From a plasmid, in the sequence record NZ_CP023785.1: a stretch of DNA of 64,000 bases. One strand, 5' to 3'. The notes beneath the pieces were generated by a model, which was not told the DNA's origin, ran no database searches, and saw only the letters and a list, made by a program, of their open reading frames with translations. A program made the translations under genes and the position numbers. Positions 34,132 to 37,154 of the stretch are shown here, one piece after another; the stretch's first letter is position 1; every line of letters starts with the position of its first letter.

Positions 34132-34143
34132 AGGAGGGAGAAA

Positions 34144-34740
34144 ATGACAAAAGCAATGGTATACAAGCTGCTAGAAGAATTTAATGGAACTTTGGCTTTG
34201 AAGGATGCCAAAAAAGCGGGCATTTCTCCTGTAACGATCAAACGTATGGTAGATCGAGGGGAGCTGGATCGAGAGTATCCAGGTTTTTTCACCTTACCTG
34301 GTCAATTTCCTGATGAATTGTTTATGGCGCAAAAAAAATATGAACGCGGCATTATTTCACATATTACCGCGTTAGATTTGTATGATTTAACAGATATGAT
34401 CCCTAGACAGATCGATCTGACTGTACCTTACGGTTATCACGTTTCTGAAAAAGGATTGAAGGAATTCGCAGTTGAGCTACACTATACAAAAGCGGAATGG
34501 TATGAATTAGGTAAGATTGAAATAAAAAGTCGCTATGGGAATCCTATTATAGCTTATGATCCAGAAAAAACCTTGTGTGACATTTGGAATCCCTGGTATA
34601 ACGTTGAGGATGAAATCAAAGTAAAAGCAATCAAAAACTACATGGAGTCGGACAGAAAAAATCTTAGAAAATTGAATGAGTATCGACGAATTTTGCCTAC
34701 AGATAAAACGATGCGCTCTTATATTATGGCTTTAAATTAA
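34144..34740 (+). CDS. abiEi: AbiEi-family antitoxin/transcriptional regulator (type IV TA)
   Basis: The N-terminus has a wHTH-like pattern (LKDAKKAGISPVTIKRMVDRGELDREYPGFF). It is paired with a downstream DUF1814-like gene. A GGAGGG RBS is present. Confidence 0.55.
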   Translation: MTKAMVYKLLEEFNGTLALKDAKKAGISPVTIKRMVDRGELDREYPGFFTLPGQFPDELFMAQKKYERGIISHITALDLYDLTDMIPRQIDLTVPYGYHVSEKGLKEFAVELHYTKAEWYELGKIEIKSRYGNPIIAYDPEKTLCDIWNPWYNVEDEIKVKAIKNYMESDRKNLRKLNEYRRILPTDKTMRSYIMALN

Positions 34741-34752
34741 AGGAGAATACAC

Positions 34753-35652
34753 ATGACACCTACGCAATTAAAAGCAAAAGTGAAGAATATTTCTAGAGAA
34801 AAAGAAGTTGATCCGCAGCTTGTTTTAAGACATTTTATGATGGAAAAATTCTTGGAAAAAATCTCAGAGTCTCCTTATCGTGAAAATTTTGTGTTAAAAG
34901 GCGGCTTCTTAATTGGCTCAAAGTATGGCATTGAAAATCGAACAACTAAAGACATTGATACGACTTTACGGGAAATGAAAGTAACCAAAGAAACATTGAC
35001 AACGGTTCTAAACGATATTTTTTCAACGCCGACGAAAGAAGGCATTCAATTTGAGATTCAAGGAATGAAAGAAACGAGGGAAGCTGATTATTATCCAGGG
35101 TTTAGCTTACGTGTACTGGCACATTTGGAAAACATGCGGCCAGATTTTAAGGTAGATGTTACTACAGGTGACTCGATCTATCCTGCGACGATCACTCACA
35201 GTCATAAATTGATGTTTGAGGATCGAACGATTCCTTTGGAATCCTATCCTACAGAACAAATTATTGCTGAAAAATTAAGTGCAACCTTTGATTTTTTAAC
35301 AGATAATTCGAGAGGAAAAGATTTTTATGATCTCTATACTATTCCTAAAATGGAGAAGATCGATGAGAAGACCTTGAAAGATAGTGTGAGAAATACATTT
35401 ACACGTCGAGGAAAAACTGATCCGTTAAAGATATACTATGAAAAGGATATGGATGTACTGAAAAATAGTCACGAGCTAAAAGATACCTGGAAGAAATATC
35501 AAAAAAGCAATCCTTATGCTGCGTCGATCACGTACGATGAGACAATGGATTCGATTAGTAATTTGATGGAAAAAGTGATTCACGTCGAAGAAAAAGAGCG
35601 AAAACTAGCTTATCAAAGACACCAACAGATGAATAGAGAAATGGAGAGATAA
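34753..35652 (+). CDS. abiEii: AbiEii/AbiGii-family nucleotidyltransferase toxin (DUF1814)
   Basis: The N-terminal motif is [26 protein letters not shown] (a KGG...R.T.DID nucleotidyltransferase signature). 299 aa. Confidence 0.6.
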
Positions 35653-35654
35653 AG

Positions 35655-36140
35655 ATGATTAATAATGTGACATTAGTAGGACGCTTAACCAAAGATCCTG
35701 ATTTACGTTATACCGCAAGTGGTACTGCAGTAGCGACTTTTACCCTAGCCGTCAACCGAAATTTCACGAATCAAAACGGCAATTGAGAAGCCGATTTTAT
35801 TAACTGCGTGATTTGGCGCAAACCAGCAGAAACAATGGCGACATTAGCTAAAAAAGGTAGCTTGATTGGTGTAGTTGGGCGGATTCAAACGCGGACTTAC
35901 GACAACCAGCAAGGACAACGTGTATATGTGACTGAAGTTGTAGCAGATAACTTTCAACTATTAGAAAGTAAAGCAGCGACAGAGAGCCGTGCGCACGCTG
36001 ATCAATCGTCCACCAGTCCAAGCACCGCCACCTTTGAACAACGGAATACAGCGACGCCTAACAACAATGGATTGAACGCTTCACAGAATCCATTTGGTGG
36101 ACAATCAATCGATATTAGCGATGATGATCTACCGTTTTAG
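35655..36140 (+). pseudogene. ssb: Single-stranded DNA-binding protein gene interrupted by an in-frame TGA at codon 41
   Basis: The N-terminus reads [43 protein letters not shown], then TGA. The same frame continues [59 protein letters not shown]...DDDLPF, which is an SSB OB-fold and acidic tail. Confidence 0.7.
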
Positions 36141-36184
36141 TTTGAGAAAGAAGGAGTAAGCATGGCAAAAAAATTAGTCTGACG

Positions 36185-36418
36185 ATGGATCTATTGATAC
36201 CCGTAATTGCATTTATAGACGGGATTTCTTTGGGCGTCACTGAAAATCCTTTGGTAAATAGAATTGCGAAAGGATCACTATTTCTTGTATTCGTGTATCT
36301 TGTCTGTTCTTATCTTTTAAAAAGAGCAGGAAAGGATAATTCCTTTTGGCGATTGACTAAAGTCACAGTAGCAGCGACAGCTGTTATACTTACGGCTATT
36401 CTACCGCTTTATATGTAG
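36185..36418 (+). CDS. Small membrane protein; alternative RBS-supported start at 36162 requires +1 shift in an A7 tract
   Basis: 77 aa with two TM segments. The ATG at 36162 has an AAGGAG RBS but terminates after 6 codons unless the A7 run (36167-36173) were A8. Confidence 0.35.
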   Translation: MDLLIPVIAFIDGISLGVTENPLVNRIAKGSLFLVFVYLVCSYLLKRAGKDNSFWRLTKVTVAATAVILTAILPLYM

Positions 36419-36433
36419 AGTTAACGGGAAATC

Positions 36434-36468
36434 GTTGAACTTCTTGCGAAATATTGCTATAATGAACA
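36434..36468 (+). promoter_or_regulatory. Consensus-like sigma-A promoter driving a short convergent RNA
   Basis: TTGAAC-17bp-TATAAT. Confidence 0.5.
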
Positions 36469-36477
36469 TGAAAAAGA

Positions 36478-36590
36478 GGAGTTGCGCTAACAACCCCTCA
36501 TTAACAGCACCGATTAAAGAACGGTGGCAGAATATTAGTTATTTGGAAATAACCGCTGACCTGCTAAAGTAGACGGTTATTTCTTTTTGT
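36478..36590 (+). ncRNA. Predicted ~110-nt antisense sRNA (type I antitoxin candidate) ending at terminator overlapping toxin 3' end
   Basis: The promoter at 36434-36468 is followed by a hairpin terminator GAAATAACCG-N18-CGGTTATTTC and a TTTTTG run at 36547-36590. No plausible ORF. Overlaps the stop codon and 3' end of the minus-strand toxin gene. Confidence 0.4.
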
Positions 36591-36681
36591 CATTTTTAAG
36601 CATATTTACAATCAAACTAATCAAAGCAATGGTAAACATACCAAAACCAAGAATGGTTTGAATTGTCTCATATGCGGACAA
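36577..36681 (-). CDS. Holin-like type I toxin peptide (34 aa, single TM, KNDKKK tail)
   Basis: The TTG start has an AAGGAG RBS 8 nt upstream and gives MSAYETIQTILGFGMFTIALISLIVNMLKNDKKK. An in-frame ATG at 36699 would give 40 aa but has no RBS. An extended -10 (TGCTATAAT) lies upstream on the minus strand at ~36769-36777. Confidence 0.5.
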   Translation of the reverse strand: MSAYETIQTILGFGMFTIALISLIVNMLKNDKKK

Positions 36682-36888
36682 AAGGCTTACTCCTTTCATA
36701 GATTTTAGCACTTACATTCATAAGCACCACCACCTTTCCAGAAGTCGCCACCGTCTTCAAACTTTACTGTCTTGACTATTATAGCATATCTAAAATCGAA
36801 TAAAAATTCTCAATTTTAGCTGTTTTTGCTATAATTTTAGCGAGGTGATCGTGATGGAACAATATATTGGTTTACTCGATAAATTAGG

Positions 36889-37113
36889 GTGATCAAGACA
36901 CAGCCATTGCTTGTGCGATTTACATTACGCACGAGTCATGAACCAATCAATTGTGTAGTGGCCAATATAGAAATAGCGGATAAATTGCTGATTTTGGAAG
37001 AAGGCAAGTATACTATTTCAGTGACAGGTCACTTCAATAAACGAAAGCAACTAGTCATTGAATCAATGCAAATTAGAAACCCTGATCATTTTACGCGATC
37101 GATGAGCATATAA
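36889..37113 (+). CDS. Hypothetical protein
   Basis: 74 aa. An upstream extended -10 TGCTATAAT is followed by a 12-codon mini-ORF with a GAGGTG RBS. Confidence 0.3.
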   Translation: MIKTQPLLVRFTLRTSHEPINCVVANIEIADKLLILEEGKYTISVTGHFNKRKQLVIESMQIRNPDHFTRSMSI

Positions 37114-37119
37114 AAGAAG

Positions 37120-37154
37120 AGCTGCAGTCCTAAATGAGGATTGTAGCTCTTTTT
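37120..37154 (+). terminator. Rho-independent terminator
   Basis: AGAGCTGCAG-loop-AGCTCTTTTTG. Confidence 0.55.

Follow-up and report, generated by a model that had tools for sequence, protein, structure and literature searches.

The window analysed here, a stretch of 64,000 nucleotides (64 kb) from sequence record NZ_CP023785.1, belongs to a pLG1-type megaplasmid of Enterococcus faecium. It contains a pair of convergent genes, one on the minus strand for a 34-aa peptide and one on the plus strand for a small RNA (Table 1). The toxin gene is already labelled in public records (RefSeq, "putative holin-like toxin"), both RNAs are recognized by Rfam and the kind is known, which removes the novelty implied by the original prediction. 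The gain for annotation is that the RefSeq toxin gene can be linked to a previously unannotated RatA-type antitoxin RNA. The neighbours of the module are ssb, AbiE and hypothetical genes, with genes for a relaxase, an ArdC-like protein, a primase-like protein and ssb located upstream. A position in the leading region next to ssb, as originally suggested, is plausible from this gene order, although the adjoining ssb is interrupted by a premature in-frame TGA. The surroundings also contain scattered IS elements and a group II intron.

Table 1. Features of the toxin-antitoxin module and their positions in the window.
Feature	Position	Strand	Details
Extended -10 box of toxin promoter, TGcTATAAT	36778-36786	Minus	Read from sequence; -35 weak
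Predicted toxin mRNA, ~300 nt	36469-36771	Minus	~90-nt 5' UTR, 34-codon ORF, ~105-nt 3' UTR
5' strand of long-distance interaction, GACAGUAAAGUUUGAAGACGGUGGC	36747-36771	Minus	mRNA nt 1-25; pairs with 36503-36528
RBS-like GGUGGUGGUGC, then AUG and 17-codon uORF MNVSAKIYERSKPFVRI	36668-36721	Minus	uORF out of frame, overlaps toxin start
Shine-Dalgarno GAAAGGAG	36690-36697	Minus	8 nt upstream of TTG; read from sequence
Toxin ORF, 34 aa, MSAYETIQTILGFGMFTIALISLIVNMLKNDKKK	36577-36681	Minus	TTG start 36681-36679, TAA stop 36579-36577
3' strand of long-distance interaction, GCCACCGUUCUUUAAUCGGUGCUGUU	36503-36528	Minus	In toxin 3' UTR; stretch also bound by sRNA linker and SL2
Intrinsic terminator of toxin mRNA	36470-36499	Minus	10-bp stem 36499-36476, then UUUUU; terminator scan
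sRNA promoter, TTGAAC, 17-nt spacer, TGcTATAAT	36435-36463	Plus	-10 at 36458-36463, TG at 36455-36456
Predicted RatA-family antitoxin sRNA, ~120 nt	36470-36590	Plus	Predicted ends
sRNA structure		Plus	SL1 36476-36499; SL2 36508-36526; terminator hairpin 36545-36584, then U-run
sRNA terminator	36545-36590	Plus	Hairpin 36545-36584; stem contains stop codon and final Lys codon of toxin

Genome contigs were scanned with a DNA pattern, which gave 120 matches; about half of these were chance matches in GC-rich genomes and were removed with nhmmer. Because the scan pattern fixed CGGUGGC and GGUGGUGCnUAUG, both motifs are conserved in the genome set by construction, and their conservation is informative only at the 13 loci obtained with BLAST. 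The ~300-nt unit was recovered full-length with nhmmer in about 45 Lactobacillales genomes or loci, and the start codon, the Shine-Dalgarno sequence, both -10 boxes and both hairpins hold their positions in 50-54 of the 54 homologous loci. Promoter-like sites by themselves were not enriched (3 found versus 3.7 expected). Three curated models, Pfam Hol_Tox, Rfam rli28 and Rfam RatA, are matched above threshold at the locus, and together with the element positions kept across the homologous loci these matches take the interpretation beyond chance.

The peptide aligns over its full length (1-34 of 34) with Pfam PF16935 Hol_Tox (55.4 bits, cut-off 23.3, E 5e-15), a family whose model is also passed by approximate sequences of Bacillus subtilis TxpA and Staphylococcus aureus PepG1. 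The curated cut-off of 70 bits of the NCBIfam equivalog model PepG1 (NF041589) was narrowly missed by both the 34-aa form (65.6 bits) and a 44-aa form starting from GTG (69.5 bits), which accounts for the RefSeq name "putative holin-like toxin"; relatives whose 47-aa form is in frame are called pepG1 in RefSeq. The term "holin-like" is only a family label here, and a role as phage holin was rejected, as no endolysin is adjacent and there is no lysis cassette.

All elements of the original prediction were located, to within a few bases. The minus-strand peptide was found as originally read, with an RBS-supported TTG start preceded by GAAAGGAG. This Shine-Dalgarno sequence is nearly invariant in the alignment; of the 54 loci, 52 start with TTG or GTG and 37 encode a peptide of 34 aa. 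The start assigned in RefSeq, ATG 36699, is not conserved, and the annotation can be corrected to TTG 36681, the conserved start. The upstream starts ATG 36699 and GTG 36711, like the long form, were not accepted as the main product in the window. The RBS-like GGUGGUGGUGC upstream of the AUG is strong and conserved. The distance from this AUG to the TTG is 40 nt in the window as compared to 39 nt at loci with an in-frame AUG; a 47-aa "PepG1"-type long form is thereby encoded at about 19 of the 54 loci, with the AUG out of frame or followed by a stop in the others. Since the long form is out of frame in the window, only the short form is expected from it.

The 5' part of the toxin mRNA matches Rfam RF01492 rli28 (105.7 bits, gathering score 45, model positions 1-186, E 1.6e-12 for the 64-kb window) at 36611-36793 on the minus strand; the "sRNA" rli28 of Rfam is the 5' UTR plus the N-terminal coding part of a Hol_Tox mRNA. 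The extended -10 box noted upstream of the toxin in the original prediction is located at 36786-36778, within the 5' end of the rli28 match, and is conserved as TATGnTATAAT in the 13-locus alignment. If the Rfam classification of RF01492 as an sRNA gene is taken literally, the minus-strand RNA could be a non-coding regulator in which the small ORF is fortuitous, and the UTRs are indeed conserved to a similar degree as the ORF (64% and 57% versus 60%). We find this scarcely credible, as the Hol_Tox match is full-length, a homolog in Enterococcus faecalis is toxic when expressed (PMC2887945), and the ORF length, start codon and Shine-Dalgarno sequence stay conserved while the peptides diverge to about 25% identity. 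Moreover, differences between close pairs of loci amount to 4.6, 2.1 and 9.3 at the first, second and third codon positions, with an excess at the third and with more synonymous than non-synonymous changes in the toxin ORF, a pattern typical of a translated ORF.

On the plus strand, the promoter originally placed at 36434-36468 was confirmed at 36435-36463, with 10 of 12 matches in a consensus scan and a TG extension in addition, and about 50 of the 54 homologous loci have a TGnTATAAT-type box at this position. The non-coding transcript that was proposed to start here is predicted as well, with a length of ~120 nt instead of roughly 110 nt. It matches the full model (1-91) of Rfam RF01776 RatA at 36460-36548 on the plus strand (E 2e-4 for the 64-kb window) with 51.5 bits, a margin of just 2.5 bits over the gathering score of 49, which is also passed at the same relative position by 10 of 12 related plasmid loci, with scores of up to 75.6 bits. 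The convergent pair of rli28 and RatA is present at 10 of the 12 diverged plasmid loci. The sRNA has a predicted folding energy of -32.3 kcal/mol (z -3.1) and lies antisense, over its full length, to the end of the toxin ORF (last 14 nt) and the complete 3' UTR, with perfect complementarity over ~120 bp. A 35-codon ATG ORF inside the sRNA was considered and rejected; it is not conserved, and most homologs read ATGTAA.

A terminator shared by both transcripts, as in pAD1 par, and a toxin mRNA of ~250 nt had been proposed. The hairpin and T-run over the toxin stop codon, previously given as 36547-36590, were recovered as a hairpin at 36545-36584 with a U-run to about 36590 that is the complement of the toxin Lys-tail codons. 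Read on the mRNA strand, this stretch is a post-stop hairpin that lacks a proper U-tract. About 75 nt beyond this hairpin, the toxin mRNA has a terminator of its own, with a stem at 36499-36476, and a length of ~300 nt is therefore predicted. In the toxin terminator, 97.4% of the cells are paired across the 54 loci, with covariation at 8 of 10 pairs, as compared to 87.6% of the cells and 9 of 11 pairs in the sRNA terminator hairpin. The toxin terminator pairs in 97.4% of cells when read on the mRNA strand versus 77.9% on the opposite strand (G-U-only cells, 111 versus 6), and the sRNA terminator in 90.7% of cells on the sRNA strand versus 87.6% (strand-specific wobble cells, 26 versus 8). This G-U asymmetry indicates that each terminator has been selected on its own strand.

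The minimum-energy fold of the toxin mRNA is -107.9 kcal/mol (z -9.3). In nascent, truncated and full-length folds alike, the Shine-Dalgarno sequence is predicted to pair with an anti-Shine-Dalgarno motif, GACUUC (36741-36746), in the 5' UTR, a pairing of moderate conservation (63-80% of cells). In addition, the first 25 nt of the mRNA pair with a stretch of the 3' UTR in a long-distance interaction for which 86.9% of the cells are paired across 54 sequences. Compensatory changes were observed at 12 of its 23 pairs, for example AU 25/GC 21, CG 24/UA 23 and AU 25/UG 23, and the observed values were not attained in any of 500 shuffles, while slid controls were paired in about 45% of cells. The duplex energy is -31.6 kcal/mol versus -14.0 +/- 3.3 kcal/mol for shuffled sequences, and G-U-only cells favour the mRNA strand (108 versus 37).

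These data also bear on the mode of action of pAD1 par, in which one bidirectional terminator is shared, RNA pairing starts at this terminator and the sRNA then blocks translation at the toxin 5' region. The module resembles pAD1 par (Fst, RNA I/RNA II) in being a type I system of an enterococcal plasmid with convergent transcription and a single-helix toxin of similar size (~33 aa in Fst), and the hairpin at 36545-36584 has a stable stem on either strand. In four relatives (L002, L005, L008 and L010) a T-run comes after it on the toxin strand as well, and a short toxin transcript of ~230 nt may therefore exist in these. In the window, however, the toxin-strand hairpin runs into UUUCCAAAU without a U-tract, the separate strong terminator at 36499-36476 is 97% paired across the 54 loci and selected on the toxin strand, and the 5'-3' covariation needs a long transcript. 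The sRNA also lacks specific or dispersed complementarity to the toxin 5' region, the energy of its duplex with the 5' UTR being within the shuffled distribution. The original comparison of the toxin to both the Hol_Tox and Fst families was upheld only for Hol_Tox (55.4 bits), which was the sole match in the Pfam scan at E<=10, with no match to Fst. We therefore regard an action in the manner of pAD1 par as highly improbable.

The txpA/RatA system from the skin element of B. subtilis is the closer parallel. There, the two RNAs overlap by 120 nt at their 3' ends and the duplex is cut by RNase III (PMC3531473). Judging from the predicted promoters and terminators, the module in the window is likewise convergent, the 3' ends of its RNAs overlap by about 120 nt, with the end of the ORF included, and each RNA has its own terminator. 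The antitoxin matches the Rfam family RatA, and the N-terminal region of TxpA, in an approximate sequence, also belongs to Hol_Tox. As in B. subtilis, each terminator faces a stem-loop of the other RNA: that of the sRNA faces the post-stop stem-loop of the mRNA, and that of the mRNA faces the 5'-proximal stem-loop of the sRNA (PMC3531473). Owing to its own terminator, the ~300-nt mRNA covers the ~120-nt sRNA fully, in agreement with this arrangement. TxpA is longer (59 aa versus 34 aa), and so is RatA (222 nt versus an sRNA of about 120 nt that is fully embedded); furthermore, the B. subtilis system is located in a chromosomal prophage-like element rather than on a conjugative plasmid, and its dependence on RNase III is proven, whereas that of the plasmid module would follow by homology.

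The closest named protein model is NCBIfam PepG1 (65.6-69.5 bits), which represents sprG1/SprF1 of S. aureus. Similarities to this system include the peptide size, an FG-containing helix, a C-terminal xKK tail and a cis antitoxin that overlaps at the 3' end, and many enterococcal relatives have two in-frame starts, for a long and a short form, and the KSxERR tract of SprG1-44 (PMC8309996). In contrast, the peptide in the window falls below the PepG1 cut-off of 70 bits and its long form is out of frame. SprF1 has an extra ribosome-binding function.

Within the genus, the E. faecalis peptide EF3263 is toxic on over-expression and a ~110-nt antisense RNA was seen by Northern blot (Fozo et al., PMC2887945), dRNA-seq has revealed RatA sRNAs in E. 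faecalis (PMC7724050 and supplement), and the chromosome of E. faecalis V583 contains 8 rli28 and 7 RatA matches, several of which are adjacent and convergent (PMC7724050 supplement). These E. faecalis txpA-ratA loci match the same two Rfam families as the plasmid module but are chromosomal and differ in their peptide sequences. One of the V583 rli28 matches may be EF3263, as it sits where this gene would be expected. Convergent plasmid-borne pairs of rli28 and RatA, with a small toxin ORF within "rli28", are also found in another host genus on pLM80 and related plasmids of Listeria monocytogenes, where their expression ranks among the highest of the plasmid genes; the authors only speculate on a toxin-antitoxin function and liken the peptide to BsrH (PMC9484302). 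An experimental study of the copy on the E. faecium megaplasmid was not found in the searchable literature.

We examined the distribution of the module among plasmids. The same 431 bp are shared by 429 plasmid records, and the module as such was found in 429 to 650 plasmid records, mostly from Enterococcus and many of them conjugative. In three further backbones, the module also adjoins ssb. A hok-type module is situated beside ssb in the leading region of the F plasmid. The copy in this plasmid lineage might be a decaying, non-functional remnant that is carried along with the backbone, as could be suspected from the out-of-frame AUG of the long 47-aa form, the in-frame TGA in the neighbouring ssb, and the IS elements and group II intron nearby. 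This seems very unlikely to us, since the 34-aa ORF is intact, as are its Shine-Dalgarno sequence, the promoters and terminators of both RNAs and the long-distance pairing. In addition, 230 plasmid records contain the 431-bp segment with at least 99% identity, and the short form is universally conserved, whereas the in-frame long form is absent from many relatives too.

The module is thus a real but ordinary copy of the TxpA/RatA, SprG/SprF toxin-antitoxin family. The core of the original prediction, a txpA/RatA-like type I module with a single-helix toxin of the Hol_Tox family and a convergent antisense sRNA, is supported by the Hol_Tox, RatA and rli28 matches and by conservation across the 54 loci. 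We consider it very probable that this TxpA/RatA-SprG/SprF-family (Hol_Tox) type I module on a conjugative E. faecium megaplasmid serves in plasmid maintenance, by post-segregational killing, from within the establishment region. Toxicity on over-expression and neutralization by the sRNA have been demonstrated for homologs (PMC2887945, PMC3531473, PMC8309996), and by extension from these the plasmid copy would be expected to be transcribed, to be toxic, to depend on RNase III and to stabilize the plasmid.

In another scenario, the peptide is real and under antisense control but acts other than in addiction, for example as a sub-lethal membrane effector, in phage defence or in persistence, as a released cytolytic or antibacterial peptide like PepG1 of S. 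aureus, or as a modulator of the host in the manner of ComI, a plasmid-encoded inhibitor of competence. SprG1 peptides are lytic to erythrocytes and to bacterial competitors (PMC8309996), roles besides killing are favoured by Fozo et al. (PMC2887945), and many homologs are chromosomal (contig scan; PMC7724050 supplement), for which a role in addiction is doubtful. There is also a weak match to the NCBIfam model ComI (E 0.004), but its 17 bits are far below the cut-off of 55. Given that the module is strongly tied to plasmids and to the ssb/establishment region, as expected of maintenance modules, and that its regulatory architecture is that of systems in which loss of the antitoxin is lethal (PMC3531473), a role outside addiction appears unlikely, albeit less so than the other alternatives considered above.

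For a maintenance module, the following mechanism can be envisaged. The minus-strand mRNA (about 36771 to 36470) would encode a single-helix membrane peptide with a Lys-rich tail, while a strong, constitutive-looking promoter would drive the ~120-nt plus-strand RNA (about 36470 to 36590). By analogy with txpA/RatA in B. subtilis, the two RNAs would form an extended duplex, with the first contact probably between complementary hairpin loops, and cleavage of this duplex by RNase III would remove the toxin mRNA. As a second layer of control, the toxin mRNA would be tightly folded, with its Shine-Dalgarno sequence paired to the upstream CUUC motif and its 5' end paired to the 3' UTR just before the terminator, and the full-length mRNA should therefore be stable and poorly translated.

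The 3' strand of the long-distance interaction is the stretch that is bound by the antitoxin, and the 5' end of the mRNA (GACAGUAAAG..GACGGUGGC) thereby mimics the sRNA (ACAGCACCG..AACGGUGGC). Self-closure and antitoxin binding would then be mutually exclusive, and the 5' element, once freed, might pair instead with the start-codon region (GCC..UUGUC); this alternative pairing is compatible with 88-93% of the cells, a figure that is uninformative because both of its sides are invariant. It is conceivable, although at present speculative, that competition between the 5'-3' pairing and the antitoxin for one stretch of the 3' UTR switches translation on and off. As a tentative model, which we hold to be possible rather than probable, toxin mRNAs of the rli28/Hol_Tox branch are closed by the conserved 5'-3' interaction on the antitoxin-bound stretch and operate as a three-state switch. 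A description of such a long-distance interaction was not found in the searchable literature, neither for this branch of the TxpA/RatA family nor for txpA itself.

Closure of the full-length toxin mRNA by a 5'-3' long-distance interaction is known from hok/sok and aapA/IsoA (PMC6733600). The resemblance to these systems, which include hok/sok of R1 and flm of F, is one of mechanism and not of membership, as no match of the toxin to the Hok or AapA families was obtained in the Pfam and NCBIfam scans. Whereas in hok and aapA the antisense RNA acts on the 5' part of the mRNA and the anti-Shine-Dalgarno sequence is located in the 3' partner, the antisense RNA described here targets the 3' partner itself and the anti-Shine-Dalgarno sequence is local. 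If true, the three-state switch would tie translation control at the 5' end to binding of the antisense RNA at the 3' end, and would represent a Gram-positive, differently wired counterpart of the fold-back control in hok and aapA. The covariation-supported pairing thus provides a testable hypothesis on how toxin mRNAs of a widespread Gram-positive family are kept silent and stable. Since pLG1-type megaplasmids disseminate resistance to vancomycin, along with fitness traits, in hospital E. faecium, and the module would be one of their maintenance or establishment functions, an understanding of how such plasmids are retained is relevant to plasmid-curing strategies.

In the whole 64-kb window, rli28 and RatA are the only two Rfam matches, both above the gathering score. 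Sub-threshold matches around 36783-37271 (greA leader, sau-5971 and sRNA_1300) were taken as chance.

Both strands of 36400-36900 were inspected, and the toxin gene of the original prediction was recovered as proposed: an ORF on the minus strand that starts at a TTG codon backed by a ribosome-binding site, with an extended -10 element upstream. The suggested HMM search places the 34-aa peptide in the Hol_Tox family (Pfam PF16935), with an end-to-end alignment and 55.4 bits (gathering score 23.3); the NCBIfam PepG1 equivalog was narrowly missed (65.6-69.5 bits; cut-off 70). TxpA and PepG1 sequences also score above the Hol_Tox threshold. The PepG1 sequence used is consistent with the features given for this peptide (PMC8309996). 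RefSeq lists the ORF as a 40-aa "putative holin-like toxin" (WP_002295624.1) with a start at ATG 36699, which shows no conservation among the aligned loci; "type I toxin-antitoxin system toxin PepG1" is the name given to relatives whose in-frame form is longer.

Features of the predicted toxin-antitoxin module and its neighbors in the window
Feature	Coordinates	Strand	Basis
AbiEi/AbiEii genes	34143-34739, 34752-35651	plus	
ssb	35655-36140	plus	
In-frame TGA in ssb	35787-35789	plus	
85-aa hypothetical ORF	36161-36418	plus	
sRNA promoter, TTGAAC-17-TATAAT with TG extension	36435-36463	plus	consensus scan
RatA match (RF01776)	36460-36548	plus	Rfam, 51.5 bits
Predicted sRNA, ~120 nt	near 36470 to near 36590	plus	
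Long hairpin, then U-run	36545-36584 (hairpin)	plus	fold of 36470-36592
Toxin mRNA terminator, GAGGGGUUGUUAGCGCAACUCCUC then UUUUU	36499-36476	minus	scan, strong
Toxin ORF, MSAYETIQTILGFGMFTIALISLIVNMLKNDKKK	TTG 36681-36679, TAA 36579-36577	minus	direct reading
rli28 match (RF01492)	36611-36793	minus	Rfam, 105.7 bits
RBS-like GGUGGUGGUGC and AUG near mRNA 5' end	36668-36735	minus	conserved in A3
Shine-Dalgarno, GAAAGGAG	36697-36690 (8 nt 5' of TTG)	minus	direct reading
TGcTATAAT, upstream of Shine-Dalgarno	36786-36778	minus	direct reading
Predicted toxin mRNA, roughly 300 nt	~36771 to ~36470	minus	
Second promoter, TTCTCA-17-TATAAT with TG	36807-36835	plus	
12-codon ORF	36855-36893	plus	
74-aa GTG ORF	36889-37113	plus	
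Strong 18-bp terminator	37114-37154		

The window derives from an Enterococcus faecium megaplasmid. The 431-bp segment is present in 429 plasmid records, with an identity of 99% or more in 230, and a more sensitive search gave related copies in 650 records, of which 581 are from Enterococcus. Our comparative set comprised 12 diverged plasmid loci and about 45 full-length modules of ~300 nt, the latter from a pattern scan of species-representative genomes with nhmmer filtering, combined into an alignment of 54 sequences (A3). Among the genomes, hosts include Enterococcus, Tetragenococcus, Vagococcus, Streptococcus, Lactobacillaceae and others. Several genomes (Streptococcus acidominimus L073, and L101, L106 and L045) contain two to three copies in tandem, spaced by a few hundred bases and in part truncated.

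The TTG/GTG start and the GAAAGGAG motif are retained in 52 of the 54 loci and the peptide is 34 aa long in 37; its length, FG motif and lysine tail persist in homologs although peptide identity drops to ~25%. Close pairs differ at codon positions 1, 2 and 3 by 4.6, 2.1 and 9.3, with more synonymous (7.6) than non-synonymous (5.1) codon changes, and this excess of third-position and synonymous changes indicates that the ORF is under protein-level selection.

An upstream GGUGGUGCnUAUG is strongly conserved in A3 and gives an in-frame form of 47 aa in about 19 of the 54 loci, which recalls the two peptides of SprG1 (PMC8309996). In the remaining loci the upstream AUG is either out of frame or runs into a stop, and in the window its 40-nt spacing from the TTG leaves only a 17-codon uORF. 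The copies with an in-frame GGUGGUGGUGC and AUG are those that RefSeq calls pepG1, with a KSxERR tract that resembles SprG1-44. Since the motif is conserved whatever the frame, it may act at the RNA level or in mRNA-stabilizing ribosome loading.

On the plus strand, the proposed sRNA promoter was found within a few bases of its predicted position, with the predicted start of the sRNA ~7 nt past the -10 box. By themselves, promoter-like hexamers are no more frequent than chance predicts for this AT-rich stretch (3 found, 3.7 expected), so that homology and conservation have to carry the argument. The only two Rfam matches above gathering in the entire 64-kb window are rli28 and RatA, the former running from the toxin promoter across the 5' UTR into the first codons; RatA was likewise found above gathering and convergent to rli28 in 10 of the 12 diverged plasmid loci, and the TGnTATAAT box of the sRNA promoter keeps its position in about 50 of the 54 aligned loci. 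The predicted sRNA folds into two small hairpins and a long one that holds the toxin stop codon in its 3' arm, which agrees with the terminator proposed at this site. An ATG ORF within the sRNA was rejected, as it is not conserved among the A3 loci. The Rfam model "Listeria sRNA rli28" itself corresponds to the beginning of a Hol_Tox toxin gene, from the -10 box through the 5' UTR to about codon 20, and its consensus includes a Shine-Dalgarno sequence and a UUG-start ORF opening with MSVYE; annotated rli28 matches thus mark type I toxin genes.

It had also been proposed that both RNAs share one terminator, as in pAD1 par. On the minus strand, the stop-codon hairpin is trailed by UUUCCAAAU with no U-tract and a strong terminator lies further downstream, for which reason we predict a toxin mRNA that covers the whole sRNA, with an overlap that takes in the final 14 nt of the ORF plus the entire 3' UTR. 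This geometry differs from the shared bidirectional terminator of par, and the Fst analogy was abandoned. The txpA/RatA analogy holds: in B. subtilis, experiments showed a ~120-nt overlap in which the RatA terminator faces the post-stop stem-loop of the txpA mRNA and the txpA terminator faces a RatA stem-loop (PMC3531473), as predicted here for convergent RNAs with separate terminators. The original prediction is supported in all but its comparison with par/Fst and its shared terminator.

The predicted mRNA fold has an energy of -107.9 kcal/mol (z -9.3) and includes a long-distance helix between the mRNA 5' end and its own 3' UTR.

Pairing of the helices in A3, by strand
Helix	Paired cells, mRNA strand	Paired cells, opposite strand	Compensatory change	Wobble-only (mRNA : opposite)
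Toxin terminator	97.4%	77.9%	8/10 pairs	111 : 6
5' end (nt 1-25) with 3' UTR just 5' of terminator	86.9%	80.3%	12/23	108 : 37
Post-stop hairpin (sRNA terminator on other strand)	87.6%	90.7%	9/11 pairs	8 : 26

Paired changes in the 5'-3' helix include AU 25/GC 21, CG 24/UA 23, AU 25/UG 23 and AU 33/GC 12, and its duplex energy is -31.6 kcal/mol, as compared to -14.0 +/- 3.3 for shuffles. When the structure was scored as a whole, the observed values were reached in none of 500 shuffles, and sliding the partners by 1-3 columns lowered pairing from 76.9% to 42-49%, controls that are supportive rather than proof because the structure came from the window sequence and the aligned sequences are kin. 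Independent RNAalifold runs on 13 and 54 sequences both recovered the long-distance helix. The G-U asymmetry, which indicates the strand that each helix serves, shows that the toxin terminator and the 5'-3' helix are favored on the mRNA strand and the post-stop hairpin slightly on the sRNA strand.

This 5'-3' closure is similar to the long-distance interactions in the mRNAs of hok and aapA (PMC6733600), except that its 3' strand here doubles as the target of the antitoxin, and the mRNA 5' end and the sRNA would therefore compete for this site. Comparison of duplex energies with shuffles gave no specific complementarity between the sRNA and the 5' region of the toxin mRNA. Folds of the nascent, truncated and full-length RNAs all predict that a nearby GACUUC pairs with the Shine-Dalgarno, a pairing of only moderate conservation. 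The freed 5' element may alternatively pair with the start-codon region (88-93% of cells compatible, uninformative since both sides are invariant), and the closure may either silence or license translation.

By analogy with homologs, the best-supported mechanism is that a constitutively made RatA-type RNA would base-pair with the toxin mRNA over ~120 nt of its 3' part, and that RNase III would destroy the duplex, as in B. subtilis (PMC3531473). Upon plasmid loss, the short-lived sRNA would disappear and the compact, stable mRNA would be translated into a membrane peptide that causes cell death or arrest. For EF3263 of E. faecalis, both toxicity and an antisense RNA of ~110 nt have been shown (PMC2887945), RatA sRNAs were detected in this species by dRNA-seq (PMC7724050), and the same RNA pair, rli28 and RatA, is highly expressed from Listeria plasmids (PMC9484302). 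Systems of this kind, the families to which the individual parts belong and even their occurrence in enterococci and on plasmids are already documented, and the toxin is named in RefSeq; a literature search of incomplete coverage found no paper on this megaplasmid copy or on a 5'-3' long-distance interaction in the TxpA/RatA (Hol_Tox) family.

In a matching record, the genes upstream of the module encode T4SS components, a MobP2 relaxase, an ArdC-like protein, a toprim protein, AbiEi/AbiEii, Ssb and an 85-aa hypothetical membrane protein. An ssb gene lies directly upstream of the module in three other plasmid backbones, which makes an establishment or leading-region location plausible. In the F plasmid, the hok-type flm module adjoins ssb. 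The window ssb has an in-frame TGA where an intact plasmid homolog has Arg (NGN*EADF vs NGNREADF), and both halves match Pfam SSB; NZ_CP023424 has the identical lesion and lists no ssb CDS, and the ssb of this plasmid lineage is probably a pseudogene. Immediately 5' of ssb is the type IV (abortive-infection) AbiE pair, so that two unrelated toxin-antitoxin modules flank ssb. The 85-aa ORF between ssb and the module has no Pfam match; an ORF of equal length is in the equivalent position (132-389) in L002, a locus on an unrelated replicon type (rep_cluster_889). Because no terminator turned up in a scan of the interval from its stop codon to the sRNA promoter, one idea is that read-through from ssb and this ORF could supply extra antisense RNA across the 3' region of the toxin soon after transfer.

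A second near-consensus promoter is divergent from that of the toxin and is followed by a 12-codon ORF, a 74-aa GTG ORF without a Pfam match and a strong terminator; L002 and another homologous locus (L005) have hypothetical genes of ~86 aa at the equivalent position. The NZ_CP023424 segment that matches the window flanks (24636-65066; L134) also contains a group II intron (ltrA), IS110, IS30, ISEf1 and IS66 elements, genes for an uberolysin/carnocyclin-type circular bacteriocin and AbiH, and PTS sugar-uptake operons.
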